Source: Asterias amurensis (lineage: Eukaryota). Taken from it: a stretch of DNA of 64,000 nucleotides. How positions within the stretch are numbered: position 1 is the stretch's first letter; each line of letters opens with the position of its first letter. The stretch spans positions 14,461,223 through 14,525,222 of the forward strand of contig NC_092655.1 in the NCBI RefSeq assembly GCF_032118995.1, in the 5' to 3' direction. The position numbers were made by a program, and so were the translations under genes. The notes beneath the pieces are model-generated. The model was not told the origin of the DNA. It did not search any database and was given only the letters and a program-made list of their open reading frames with translations. Positions 11,471 through 26,166 of this stretch are shown here, one piece after another.

Positions 11471-13028
11471 AGGAACAGCTATCGTCCAATCATTTGCCTC
11501 CTTTGACCCCAGTGAAGGCGCTGAACAGATCGTTAATTAAAAGAGTCACTGGTCTCAAAGATCAGTAATGTGATTAACGCACGAAAGAGATTGGAACCAT
11601 CAAAAGCTCAAAATATGACCCATTCGGCTCGGTCCGTTAACAGCGCCAGCCACCAACCCGGTCATTACCACGCAGTGAAGACCGGGTACGAACACTGTTA
11701 TTCCCTAAATAAACCACAAGGGAAGTTGACTGGGTACCTTTTTAAAATGACTGTGGGATGAACACAGACAAATTGACTAGAGCGGGATTTCAACCAACGA
11801 CCTCCGGTTTAACGATTATTTTACAATCATTTAAAAGTTTATAAAACGTAAAGGGTTTACAAAGAAAAATTTACAAGTTAACAATTAAATATAGTTTAGG
11901 CAACATTTAATGCTGGAAATATACAAAGTTTACAAAATATATATCGTTTTAAAATAATATATATATATATAAATTATTGGCGAAAGTAACTTTATCTCTC
12001 TCTCTCTGCGTCCACGTCCTTGCATAGCAACAGTTAAACAACAAGGCTGTAAGATCACGTCTTTCCCAAACGGAACAGTGTCCTGACCATAGAGCTATGC
12101 CTTTCTGCAGAGGGGCTCGCAACAACACAACTCCACACTGACGCTGTGTTATTGTGCCAAATCAAACACATTATCATTAAAAAGATGAATTGTATTCCCA
12201 TATGCAAAAATAATTGTTCTTAAGCACCTCGTACCGGCTCATGCTGTGCTCCGGCTGTGCTCTGATTTTTGTTGTCTTATTTAGAAATGTCACCCTTTTT
12301 CCCTACATGCAATGACTGAGTCTGGTTACCTGGTATGGAGTCCTTCTCATCTTCACATGCCCTGTAACCACTAGAATCCTGTTGATGGTAAAGCGGTACT
12401 CTATTACTTGGACACACCTTTAAATCATGGAACTCTACTGAGTTGTATTACCGCACAGAGGGATCACGTCCACCAAGAAAGGTATATTATCACCCCTACT
12501 ATCAGTAATGTAACTCTACTAACCAAACTTGCAAGTCCTATACCCAGTTACTGCATGCGCAGCGTTGCACACTAACCTAAATCTACCAAGCTCATATCCG
12601 AGCACGCTTGCGTGTGACATCTTAATCTCCAACTTCACACCATTCGTCATTGTCTACACGTCGTGTAACAACCACGCACCCCATTTACTACACGTTCATT
12701 CTTAAACTAAAATGGAATAACTCCATTCGAAGTGCACTTTTCTCATTTTTTATTTTGTTTTGTCTCATATTTTTTCGAAGACGGTGTCATGCCATTCCAG
12801 TACCGACCAAGAAGACATCATTGGGAGCTATGTACGCTGTGAGGAAAACGACAGGACCAGGTAAGTTTATTTTCAGTCTGATTAATAGCTTGGAAAGTAA
12901 TGAGGGAGCGTAATTTGTTAAGGTTTATCCTAAAATAAACATTTTGTTCAGATTTAAAGGGGGCTCCATGCTCTAATTTAGCTTTGTAATTCACAAATTT
13001 TCCATTTGCTGGAGTCAAGATGAAAATT

Positions 13029-13040
13029 GGGGGGGGGGGG
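13029..13040. repeat. G12 homopolymer run inside the M intron. Other G runs lie at 18625-18632, 19784-19796, 35470-35484 and 42288-42298.
   Basis: 'attggggggggggggactcgattatgtaagatgc', read directly. Confidence 0.9.
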
Positions 13041-13407
13041 ACTCGATTATGTAAGATGCTATTGTGTTTGATACCGTTCAATTGCAATTCAAATATAAAG
13101 GGCCATACATTTTTTGACAGAAATTCTTCAGTTTCATTTCCAAATTGTAATCAAAAGGACATCAAGTCTGGGTTAATGTACCGACCAATGGGGAGAGGGT
13201 GATGGTATGAAACGTTGCGAGAACCAACTCCCTCTGAATTAACATAGTTTTCGATTAAGAAGTAATTTCCATGAATTTGGAAATTCTTGATATGTGCGTA
13301 TTATATTGTTCCTTTACTAATTTATGCGGGTTTACTGTATTAATGTTTATTATAATGGTATTCGCTTTTGTACAGTTTATGGAGTGGGCGCAATGTAAAT
13401 GAACAAA

Positions 13408-22811: not shown

Positions 22812-24973
22812 GCCCACACATTGCACGATTCCAGTCAAAGATATTATTCAGTCTACCGAACCTGCGCTCAAACATCTAGACAAGACATTCGTCAACCATA
22901 TCCGCATCCAGATTCTTCAAACTCTTCAAACACCAAGTTACCAAGACCCAACACAAGCAAGCAAGAACACGCCGCTATCCGAGCCCTGCACAAAGACAAG
23001 TCTATCCACATCATTTCAACGAACATTGGTAATGCCACCGTGTTCATGTGCACAACAGATTCTGACCACAAGGTAACCGACATCCTGTCAACTGATACCT
23101 ACCGACGCCTGCCAAGTAACTCCTGTTCAGTCATCGAACGCACCCCCACTGCTAAATTTTGCACTCTCTATCAAGCGCAGGTCATAGACAACACCATGTA
23201 CCGTCACCTCAAGCCATCCGCATCCGCCTAATCACGTTTTTTTGGCCAACCTTAAGAGCCACAAGCCAGATGTTCCTCTCCGTCCCATCGTGGCGTCCCG
23301 GGGTCACCCACCTACAATACTGCAAGACACCCCACCAAGACCCTTCATCCACTAGTTGGCCTCACTGAACATAACATTAACAACTCAAGCAAGTTCGTCG
23401 ACATTATCAAATACATACATCTCCGCCCAACTGAGATCCTTGTCAGTTTTGACATCATGTCACTATTCACCAACATACCAACTGAAGAAGCATGCAACAT
23501 CGCCGAACAATGCCTTCAAGCCTAACCTACACTGACAGACCGCACAAGACTCACTCCAGAACAAGTCCACGACCTCCTTATCACCTGCTTCTCCGCTTTT
23601 AGATTCAGGTGGCGAGACAAATTCTACGAACAAACCTCTGGGGCCACCATGGGATCTCCTCTATCCCCGGTCCTGATGGATTTGTTCATGGAGGAGTTTT
23701 AACTTGACGGTATCAAGAACGCCAATCTTAGCCCCAACCTCAGGTTCCGCTACATTGACGACACCTTTGTGGTTTTGGCCCAACGGCAAGACAGCACTCC
23801 AAAAGTTCTTCCATCAACTGAACAGTCATTATCTACGTATCCGATTCAACATGGAACAAGAACAAAACAATGCTATCTCCTTCCTAGGTGCCGAAGTAAC
23901 AAGACAAGCTGATGGCACTCTAGCCCACACGGTACATCACAAGCCAACGCACACCAACAGATACATTCACAACTCATTATTCCACCATCCTCGCATCAAG
24001 TCTGCTGTCTCCAACACCTTGGTCCGTTGGACCTTGGACACCTGTGACAAGGGCAGCTTGAAGCAGGAACTACAACACATCAAGACATCACGTCAACCTA
24101 ATGGCTACAAAACTTTCAACCTCAGCGAGCCCAAGCCAAGTCTCACACCAGATGAACTACCAGAGTTCAAGGCTGCAATCTCCCTCCCAAACATTGGCCT
24201 ATCTTCTCACAAGCTTCAACGTATCTTCATTCAAGCTCAAGTCAAGACCTTCCATACAGCATCAAACAAGATTCAAGCATCGCTCCACACACACAAGGAC
24301 AAGCAAGACACTCGAGACAAAGCCAGCGTTTACCACATTCCCTGCGATTACTGTGAAGTATACATCGTGGAACCAGGGCGCAATATCTCAACAAGAATCA
24401 AGGAACACAAAGCACATGGCACACTGGAACACCTCAACAATTCAGCCATCATCAAATATTCACACGAACACGACAGCATCATCAAGTGGAATCAAGCCAA
24501 ACTCATAGCTCATGTACAGTCCTGTCACCAATGCAGAGTCGGGGAGGCCATCGATATACAAGCACGCCATACAGTTCCAGAAGACATCGGTTTCTTCATT
24601 AACGACATCTGGTCACACATCCTCAAGCCAACCCTTCCAGCAGCAGCTCACCACAAGAATGTCACACTCCAATGCACACACATCCAGCCAGCAATCAACT
24701 CACATGCATTACCGGCCAAGAACAGCTTTGATCCATCCCGCCCAAATGCTCATCCATCCAGCACTTCTAAAGTTCGACCATTGCCTGTAGTCCAACATTC
24801 TCCTGAAGACGAGCAGAATAAACTGTTAGAAACATCGAGACCAAACCTGCTCTTTCCAGAGCCAATACTCACCTTAAGAGGTTTACACATGGTTGTCCCT
24901 GTAAATTCTTATTTCTCCACACCATGCAAAGCTTCAAACAATACATATCCAAGATGGGATTAAATCGCAACAA
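22812..24973 (+). mobile_element. PLE of the P lineage (P1b), the copy-B counterpart of 755-2917
   Basis: ORFs 22665..23231 and 23704..24963 are near-identical to 610..1176 and 1648..2907. Confidence 0.85.
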
Positions 24974-26166
24974 ACCTAGGTAGAATAGCTAGAGAATGAT
25001 CTCTTTATACTCAAAACTCTATTTCGAGATGCATTTTTCTCATTGTCTGTATTTTTTCTTTAATTTTTTTACGGCGACGGTGAACCATCTGCCTATTGGA
25101 GACCAATGGAAACTGCACCATTCCAGTTGCGGCCATGAAGACATCAATGGGAGCTGTGTATCTTTGAGGAAAACGACAGAAAAAGGTAAGTTTACATTAA
25201 GGGACCGTAAGTTGTTGAGATTTATCCGGAAATCAAGATTATGTCTAGATTTAAAAGGGGCTCCATGCTAAAATTTAGCTTTGAAAATCACCAGTTTTCC
25301 AATTGCTAGAGTCCTCATGAAAAAAATCTAAACCTCGCAGCATGAATATTGTTCTATGGTGAAAAGTATTTAATGAGAATAGTGATTTTGTAATAACTTG
25401 ATTGGCATATATTTCAGGAGTCTGCAGTTCTGCTGGGGATGTGGTGTGCTACCTGCCGATGACCAAAAGCCATGATGCAACAGTGCCTGACTATGCGGAC
25501 AGCATCCCAGCTGTCATTTAAGTGCACCAAACATAGGTAGATAGCTGGAGAATGATCTCTTTAATCTCTAAACTCTGTTGGGGAAGTGCATTTTGCTAAT
25601 AGTTTGTATTTGTCGTTTATTTTTTACGGCGACGGTGAACTGGTTAAATGTTTAACCATCTGCCCATGGGAGTCCAGTGGAAACTGCACATGCCGGCCAT
25701 GAAGTAATCATTGGGACCTTTGTACGCTGTGAGCAAAATGACAAGACAGGGTAAGTTTATTTTTAGTTTGATTGTTGGCAAATTTTGTGATTTTGACTGG
25801 AGCATAACTATTTTCCTCTTCTGGATTAGTGATGTGAAAAAAATAACATTGTATTACATAAATGTGCCAAATACAACCTTGCAACATGAACTATAATTGT
25901 TCTACAGTAAAAAGTATTTGGTGAAAATAATTTCACTGAAATGTCTTAATTGACATATATTTCAGGAGTCTGCAGATCTGCTTGGGACACCTGCTGATAA
26001 CAAGCACCAACATGAAAACAGCCGAGAGGATGCCTGCCTATGCGGACAACATCCCAGTTGTCATTGAAGTGCACCAAACATAGGTAGATAGCTAGAGAAT
26101 GATCTCTTTAATCTCGAAACTTCATTTCGCAGTGCATTTCATTTGCTTGGATCCTTTTTGTTCTTA
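24974..26166 (+). repeat. Tandem M modules, the copy-B counterpart of 2918-4110
   Basis: Colinear identity. Donors 'ggtaagttta' lie at about 25186 and about 25755. Acceptors 'tttcaggagtctgcag' lie at about 25417 and about 25959. Confidence 0.7.

Follow-up and report, generated by a model that had tools for sequence, protein, structure and literature searches.

A decayed head-to-head Penelope-like palindrome within a nested tandem repeat array of Asterias amurensis

The window, the whole stretch of DNA analyzed here, comprises 64,000 nucleotides of Asterias amurensis (NCBI RefSeq assembly GCF_032118995.1, contig NC_092655.1, positions 14,461,223 to 14,525,222 of the forward strand). It contains a tandem array of 22.4-kb units, in which each complete unit holds two direct copies, a and b, of a block of about 6.75 kb, and each block carries an inverted pair of Penelope-like elements (PLEs). 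Such an arrangement raises the question of how the levels of repetition were built and in which order they arose. Our answer, which we regard as well supported, is that the locus would be non-functional repeat DNA built by successive passive steps: the insertion of a PLE pair, the duplication of the block, gene conversion between the two copies and the amplification of the unit.

The array and the palindrome in each block

Self-BLAST of the window identified a tandem period of 22,446 bp, with 6231-28971 matching 28677-51473 at 99.13% identity including gaps. About 2.7 units are visible. There are two complete units and a partial unit at 1-6525, and a truncated fourth copy (54272-59354, equivalent to 6537-11618) ends the array at 59354, unit position 11618. 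Both complete units hold the direct repeat, with a period of 6,754-6,759 bp and a similarity well above chance, as the initial annotation had proposed when it described a sub-repeat of about 6.75 kb present twice in every unit; "every unit" here means the two complete units and one partial unit in the window. The two copies share a 4.6-kb core (13830-18443 in a and 20588-25202 in b, 98.18% identity, offset 6,758), with matching segments to its left (12541-13348 and 19295-20098 at 94.7%; 13347-13437 and 20142-20232 at 90%) and to its right (18500-18623 and 25200-25323 at 91%). The parts of the cores in the first complete unit (unit 1) are as follows.

13830-14047, (+): left host flank of cassette a and start of the 98.2% core; its last ~56 bp (13990-14047) are the left member of a direct repeat resembling a target-site duplication (TSD)
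14048-16052, (-): N arm of copy a, a 5'-truncated, decayed PLE with reverse transcriptase (RT) and GIY-YIG domains (tblastn, BLASTP, phmmer)
16050-16055, no strand: palindrome center GGCGCC, the head-to-head junction of the arms (sequence, hairpin fold)
16053-18057, (+): P arm of copy a, a 5'-truncated, decayed PLE with frameshifts, including a 419-amino acid (aa) open reading frame (ORF) at 16945-18204
18058-18187, (+): one-sided "tail" of ~130 bp, 3' of the P arm, found by blastn-short only in the five cassettes
18188-18443, (+): right host flank of cassette a; 18188-18250 is the right TSD-like member and 18443 the end of the 98.2% core
20588-25202, mixed strands: core of sub-repeat b, with left flank 20588-20806, N arm 20807-22811 (-), P arm 22812-24816 (+), tail 24817-24967 and right flank 24968-25202

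Self-BLAST also showed that 14044-18054 matches its own reverse complement at 85.1%. Each block contains a spacer-less palindrome of 2 x 2.0 kb, formed by two stop-ridden, 5'-truncated PLEs with RT and GIY-YIG domains, and the 300 nt around its center (15903-16202) are predicted to fold into a near-perfect hairpin (-125.8 kcal/mol, z=-24.5). When a homologous database protein of 863 aa (P0002) was compared with the window by tblastn, its residues 215-820 were placed at 16043->14240 on the N arm and residues 217-821 at 16066->17880 on the P arm, so that both arms are without the same first ~215 residues. The same search found no PLE homology in the window outside the cassettes.

On the minus strand, the N arm reads as an RT followed by a GIY-YIG endonuclease, with residues 253-750 of P0002 covered in one frame. 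This main frame has five in-frame stops from 16098 to 14047, and the homology to residues 215-251 sits in a second frame, indicating a frameshift upstream of residue 253. The stitched N-arm translation had 1,180 homologs by phmmer (best E=1.8e-170); these are annotated as RVT_1/GIY-YIG and carry PF00078, PF28514 and PF26215, and the best named ones are all from echinoderms (Asterias, Patiria, Lytechinus, Diadema, Strongylocentrotus and Anneissia). Its BLASTP alignment with P0002 (53% identity, 500 aa) covers the RT motifs SFDVVSLFTN and YI[N/D]DTF and the endonuclease motif GVYRIPCDCGKVY, and GVYRIPCDCGKVYFAET aligns with residues 720-736, within the Pfam GIY-YIG match at 720-757. Pfam identified RVT_1 and GIY-YIG on P0002. 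It gave no match on the decayed PLE ORFs or on the stitched N-arm translation, and the PLE identity was therefore established through the homologs. Judged by this homology, the cassette is made of canonical PLEs with a PLE-type RT and a C-terminal endonuclease. No intact PLE ORF is present, as the N arm has stops and a frameshift, the P arm has frameshifts and stops, and the first ~215 residues are missing; both copies, to judge from their reading frames, are dead.

The two arms differ by p=14.1-14.7% (Kimura two-parameter distance, K2P, 0.158-0.165). Their differences fall nearly evenly on the three codon positions (87/64/93; chi-square p about 0.06, calculated by hand from these counts), with a ratio of nonsynonymous to synonymous divergence (dN/dS) of 0.61. 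The shared truncation point (residue 215-217), the spacer-less GGCGCC center and the near-even codon positions support a single origin of the pair, after which the arms would have diverged largely by neutral decay. The inverted pair might instead represent two independent head-to-head insertions of related, distinct PLE copies, which would account for arms 14-15% apart, for a dN/dS below 1 and for a tail on one arm only. We consider this quite improbable, as two such insertions would have to share their truncation point and also meet, with nothing between them, at a palindromic center, the near-even codon positions do not favor it, and a head-to-head structure made in a single event is a documented PLE pattern. 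The tail itself (18058-18187) is missing from the N-arm end and, by blastn-short, from the rest of the window outside the cassettes, and an origin as a copy of nearby sequence was rejected for want of any match outside them. The palindrome junction, searched for as an exact sequence among JGI metagenome contigs, gave 0 matches.

Divergence between copies and the order of events

To place the two levels of repetition in order, we compared the cores of unit 1 with those of the neighboring units, in which the following cores are present.

1-3146, strand not assigned: core of sub-repeat b in unit 0, incomplete because the window begins inside it; 0.16% from 1b and 0.70% from 2b
36337-40950, strand not assigned: core of sub-repeat a, unit 2; 0.50% from 1a
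43092-47707, strand not assigned: core of sub-repeat b, unit 2; 0.50% from 1b

Across the 4.6-kb core, a and b differ by 1.65-1.84%, whereas the same copy differs between units by 0.50% (1a-2a and 1b-2b), 0.16% (0b-1b) or 0.70% (0b-2b). In addition, a and b carry fixed differences at 63 sites across the units, and only three sites conflict with the tree ((1a,2a),(0b,1b,2b)). Because a and b are further apart than the units (1.65-1.84% versus 0.16-0.70%) and these 63 differences are fixed, the sequences support an inner duplication that predates the amplification of the unit. This is the order that the initial annotation had put forward, an older duplication of the cassette followed by amplification of the whole unit, and the comparison that it recommended, of sub-copy with unit-copy divergence, gave the predicted outcome. 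Nor do a and b resemble each other only as unrelated PLE copies would: they are 98% identical, compared with 85% between the PLE arms and at most 53% aa identity to named database PLEs. The only closer database protein (P0096, 95% aa identity) is the same cassette on an independent contig. The P-arm ORFs of a and b, which had been put at about 3% apart, differ at 13 of 419 residues (3.1%).

The divergence between a and b is not uniform. It is 1.60% and 1.55% in the two PLE arms and higher outside them:

Host flanks: 2.3% and 3.8%
M, the repeat adjoining the cassettes: 4.5-4.6%
Start of the right-hand M copy: 8.9%

The difference between M and the arms is significant (Fisher test, p=1.6e-6), and the longest stretch without fixed a/b differences, 733 bp at 17049-17782, is longer than expected by simulation (P=0.0015). 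Between units, the DNA at 18444-20587 has four differences in 2,141 aligned bp, compared with 23 in 4,614 bp of the core. The M and spacer DNA thus does not evolve faster than the PLE core, and rate heterogeneity does not explain the a/b gradient. Since the divergence is non-uniform, the value of 1.8% cannot date the duplication and is a lower bound only.

The comparisons between units were themselves bimodal. Units 1 and 2 show about four differences in 7 kb (0.06%) from 6501 to ~13400, but 0.2-0.5% between 13830-27232 and 36337-49736. Low values of 0.06-0.16% were also obtained for 1-13400 against its +22.4-kb counterpart (22056-35850), and of 0.10-0.16% for the visible part of unit 0 against unit 1. 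Against units 1 and 2, the left part of unit 3 gave 0.5-0.67%. The switch between "young" and "old" divergence lies in an (ATT)n/(GCTGTC)n tract at 13400-13830. This bimodality points to a very recent unequal exchange of one unit, superimposed on an older array. It fits at least two rounds of unequal exchange, with the latest exchange point within that tract.

A simpler scheme would have one 6.75-kb duplication at a single date (~1.8%) and one amplification, with the unevenness attributed to local mutation rates. The core divergence is fairly even between the arms (1.60% and 1.55%) and the tree topology fits, as such a scheme predicts. We nonetheless find it decidedly unlikely, and it is already disfavored by four observations: divergence in the flanks is 2.5-5 times that of the core (p=1.6e-6), a 733-bp stretch is free of fixed differences (P=0.0015), M and spacer DNA are no faster than the PLE core between units, and the unit divergence is bimodal (0.06-0.16% versus 0.5-0.7%). 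The two-level hierarchy of the initial annotation thus stands as to the order of events, while the number of levels is at least four or five: the palindrome (14-15%), the block duplication (4.5-9%, from the flanks), the homogenization of the core (1.6%), the amplification of the units (~0.5-0.7%) and the latest unit duplication (0.06-0.16%). The dating that it called for yielded this relative order; absolute dates would require a calibrated neutral rate.

On these values the PLE pair (15%) is older than the split between the M copies at the starts of a and b, M1 and M3 (4.5%). The simplest reading of the gradient is that the entire block, with its palindrome, was duplicated earlier, at about the divergence of the flanks, and that gene conversion between a and b then evened out the core. 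Conversion from arm to arm was rejected, as only two of 36 unit-specific substitutions in the palindrome match the opposite arm; 25 of the 36 leave a majority state that equals the opposite arm. Copy 1a has a cluster at 17173-17428, where five 1a-specific substitutions and two sites common only to 2b occur within 255 bp, several times the unit-level average. This cluster may represent a conversion tract from a copy outside the window.

We also considered whether the palindrome takes an active part. It could drive the homogenization, through cruciform or hairpin breaks repaired from the direct copy, and the PLE pairs could yield a silencing hairpin RNA, either in addition or instead. If so, conversion tracts centered on the palindrome would explain why the a/b divergence is lowest inside it and rises outward, and transcribed inverted PLE pairs would give a long hairpin RNA feeding small-RNA silencing of the same PLE family. 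We judge such a role unlikely, and favor passive repeat dynamics with no sign of function.

The insertion site, the block borders and the proposed history

The cassettes are bordered by copies of M, a local non-coding repeat family, and by segments specific to a or b.

12541-13348, (+): M1, left-flank M copy at the start of sub-repeat a; matches 19295-20098 at 94.7% (p=4.5%, K2P 0.046)
13407-13829, no strand: (ATT)~100 at 13407-13715 and (GCTGTC)~16 at 13734-13829, in copy a only (TRF)
18359-19277, (+): M2, right of cassette a, with a 31-bp x2 repeat (18447-18509) and a ~400-bp insert (18783-19182)
19295-20098, (+): M3, start of sub-repeat b and counterpart of M1 by alignment
20204-20587, (+): short imperfect ATT run (20204-20233), followed by 355 bp specific to b (20233-20587) that the independent contig shares
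25200-25323, (+): M4, truncated M copy 3' of cassette b, where colinearity ends; matches 18500-18623 at 91% (p=8.9%)
25331-25774 and 25875-26140, (+): E and F, PLE-free, "empty-site"-like M-family monomers ~546 bp apart

M1 has partial matches to M2 (18359-18782 and 19183-19277) at 83-92%. When the PLE pair was removed in silico, the flanks 13929-14047 and 18188-18455 aligned continuously with 25396-25779 (71%, E=6e-57), and they also aligned through the excision point with 25942-26139. These PLE-free paralogs spanning the junction support the insertion of the PLE into an M monomer. A direct repeat of ~56 bp (13990-14047 and 18188-18250) brackets the insert and occurs singly in E and F. Its two members are identical at about 41 of 56 positions (~73%) and each is nearer to E and F (80-90%); it could be a target-site duplication.

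Two other identities for M were tried and rejected. Its splice-site-like motifs suggested a protein-coding exon, which is unsupported given the 1-, 7- and 30-nt indels among the M copies and the lack of a Pfam match. An origin as a part of the PLE (pseudo-long terminal repeat, pLTR, or N-terminal region) found no tblastn signal beyond the arms. The ORF pairs named in the initial annotation are present at colinear coordinates, including one in M (12650-12913 and 19403-19666); because 44 of 87 residues differ in that pair and the M copies carry the indels just mentioned, the M ORFs are, by this comparison, not conserved coding sequence.

As PLEs can mobilize sequences lying between pLTRs (Arkhipova et al. 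2013, PMC3846280), the cassette might be a composite mobile unit with M as its pseudo-LTR, the second copy having arisen by retrotransposition and not by duplication at the DNA level. M copies do lie in direct orientation on both sides of the palindrome. We regard this as extremely improbable, however: M has neither PLE homology by tblastn nor a hammerhead ribozyme, the two copies lie side by side and stay colinear across non-PLE DNA that includes the start of the microsatellite region, PLE-free M monomers lie next door, and both arms are dead.

The colinearity that had been described for 12505-19300 and 19300 to about 26100 holds over 12541-18623 and 19295-25323, and is lost in the final ~0.7 kb of the blocks (18624-19294 versus 25324-~26050). 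At the junction between a and b (19294|19295), no homology was found upstream of 12541, which suggests that the block duplication was non-homologous or based on microhomology and was not an exchange between M copies. At the other end of the core, copy a has a perfect 31-bp x2 tandem repeat at 18447-18509 (ATTGATAGCTTGGGAAGTAATGAGGGACCGT), as does the independent contig described below. The b copies in the window are without it, owing to a 57-bp indel (18447-18509 versus 25195-25205) at the very end of the 98% core.

Most of the place that the (ATT)n/(GCTGTC)n block occupies in a is taken in b by 355 bp of unique sequence (20233-20587). The initial annotation had proposed that the giant (ATT)n tract eroded in the second copy. 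The short ATT run that it quoted is present (20204-20233), but the erosion has no directional support. The tract is dynamic, its length changing from 309 bp in unit 1 to 357 bp in unit 2 (TRF), and its expansion in copy a is at least as likely as erosion in b. The 355-bp segment begins with a small hairpin, GTTTCGAGACCTCA...TGAGGTTTCGAAA, at 20236-20283, which could be the terminal inverted repeat of a small inserted element and has a chance-level Rfam miRNA match (E=0.35). The two weak Rfam "miRNA" matches obtained (E=0.35 and 0.58) correspond to this hairpin and the palindrome center.

A 95%-identical counterpart (P0096) of the 419-aa ORF at 16945-18204 lies on a 6,651-bp ENA metagenome-assembly contig (ERZ4235598 NODE_3366; L001). 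The order of features on L001 is M2 tail, M3, 355-bp segment, palindrome, M4 and E; its identity to a and to b alike is 98.0-98.3%, and the final 311 bp match 47705-48015 at 100%. This contig is independent evidence that the a|b junction and the b-specific structure are real. At the sites that distinguish a from b, its states are interleaved (42 b, 21 a and 31 unique), and its use as an outgroup for polarizing and dating was dropped on account of the 42/21 interleaving and the 31 unique sites. Ten of the 31 unique differences fall within 36 bp matching 18056-18091, at the boundary between the P arm and the one-sided tail.

L001 also bears on whether the a/b copies or the 22.4-kb units are an assembly artifact, that is, falsely duplicated haplotypes or mis-joined repeats. 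Some unit pairs are nearly identical (0.06%), assemblies are prone to error in tandem repeats, and PLE structures are a known source of such trouble. An artifact is nevertheless very improbable, as the 63 a/b-specific differences recur in every unit, the copies differ structurally (microsatellite versus 355-bp segment; 57-bp indel), and L001 spans the junction between the a tail and M3 as well as the b tail.

Taking these observations together, we propose the following history. A canonical, endonuclease-bearing PLE would have inserted into one M monomer, a single event giving two 5'-truncated copies, head-to-head and without a spacer, via self-priming or a template switch; both arms would then have decayed neutrally and are now ~15% apart. 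A tandem duplication of the ~6.75-kb block (M, microsatellite, flank, palindrome, flank and M), with a junction at 19294|19295 lacking homology, would have followed, and its flanks are now 4.5-9% apart. Gene conversion between the copies would have homogenized the ~4.6-kb core to 1.6-1.8%, and the 733-bp tract more recently. Finally, at least two rounds of unequal crossing-over (~0.5-0.7% and ~0.06-0.16%) would have multiplied the ~22.4-kb unit with both copies inside it. The anatomy, the PLE identity, the shared truncation point, the tree topology and the non-uniform divergence are shown by the sequences themselves; the molecular mechanisms in this scheme (self-priming, conversion and unequal exchange) are those that we infer from the structure and the divergence pattern.

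Several points weigh against this history. The array structure was read from the assembly sequence alone, and L001 may be a collapsed short-read consensus, which makes it weak for dating. The dN/dS of 0.61 is below 1, and part of the arm divergence could predate the insertion. The non-colinear final ~0.7 kb means that a simple tandem duplication needs a later rearrangement. Gene conversion is read from the divergence pattern only, and a staggered history, with an older duplication of M and a later copying of the core, gives a similar pattern. The ~56-bp direct repeat, at ~73% identity, is less similar than the arms (85%), and its members may be two neighboring M monomers and not a TSD. Finally, no hammerhead ribozyme was found, either at E<=1 in 6000-29000 or at the Rfam gathering threshold window-wide, and no pLTR was found. 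Both are expected to be missing because the copies are 5'-truncated, so their absence is no argument against PLE membership.

No conserved gene was found inside the 22.4-kb unit. The Rfam scan of the whole window identified no family at gathering threshold and no rRNA, the tRNA scan of the window found none, and exact-protein look-ups of three window ORFs returned no record. At the unit borders lie AT-rich satellite blocks with related 293-, 392- and 399-bp monomers (5177-7327, 27233-29264 and 49737-55052). The 399-bp monomer is expanded to eight copies (51878-55052) ahead of the last, truncated unit, with ~2-3 copies elsewhere. The array is capped by ~17 copies of a 31-bp satellite (59355-59900, consensus GTAGGATTCTGGCCCTATGCTTTAGCACTGT), with unique DNA beyond. 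In that unique DNA, an exon-like ORF at 63222-63554 (+) contains what looks like the beginning of an isocitrate/isopropylmalate dehydrogenase domain. The Pfam match (Iso_dh, profile positions 1-26) is weak, its E of 0.006 falling short of the curated cut-off, and the ORF probably belongs, as an exon, to a host gene adjoining the array that encodes an NAD-isocitrate dehydrogenase-like protein. The ORFs at 62142-62465 (-) and 26538-26843 (-) contain the motifs ...VQHRAARFVVNDY... and ...SPRLWNSLPNN...FKSKLKTHLF and have no significant Pfam match. Such motifs we take to belong to the C-terminal regions of non-LTR retrotransposons, and the two ORFs are probably decayed remnants of long interspersed elements (LINEs) or of short interspersed element (SINE) tails.

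Relation to known systems

Canonical endonuclease-bearing PLE insertions with an adjacent inverted, 5'-truncated copy were reportedly described by Evgen'ev and Arkhipova in 2005. The hallmarks of PLE insertions include such an inverted copy, a palindrome where the copies meet, ascribed to self-priming, an extra stretch at one end only and a preference for microsatellites (PMC8557442, PMC3846280). The Asterias cassettes are like canonical insertions (Craig et al. 2021, PMC8557442; PMC3846280) in their RT with a C-terminal GIY-YIG domain and heavy 5' truncation, and also in their head-to-head inversion, junction palindrome, extension at one end only and nearby microsatellite. They differ in that both copies are truncated at the same point, producing a symmetric 2 x 2.0 kb palindrome, whereas in canonical insertions a short inverted pLTR accompanies a full element. 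The extension at one end measures ~130 bp here, compared with 30-40 bp, the flanking direct repeat is ~56 bp and ~73% identical, and the copies are dead.

The array has the features of higher-order repeats and macrosatellites, which are shaped by unequal crossing-over, gene conversion and concerted evolution: a smaller repeat nested within the tandem unit, copies in equivalent positions of different units that resemble each other more than the two within a unit do, mosaic ages of unit pairs, and satellite blocks (293/392/399 bp) of variable copy number at the unit borders. Unlike macrosatellites, ~2.7 units are visible with the array end inside the window (59354), no gene was found in the unit, and the nested repeat is a dimer of M-family monomers, one with a transposon palindrome. 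Large palindromes such as the ampliconic ones of the human Y chromosome keep their identity by arm-to-arm gene conversion. The Asterias palindromes share the kilobase-scale inverted arms, but these are 14-15% apart with no arm-to-arm conversion (2/36 substitutions matching the opposite arm), and homogenization here would be between the direct copies a and b.

The locus thus appears to be an ordinary product of known processes, a typical dead head-to-head Penelope insertion carried along by repeat dynamics. It adds one decayed PLE family and leaves the understanding of PLEs or tandem arrays unchanged. Because conversion would have reset the core, the pairwise identity of such a nested repeat is not directly convertible to dates, and the array may serve as a worked example of a single-event head-to-head Penelope insertion caught in block duplication, gene conversion and macrosatellite amplification.

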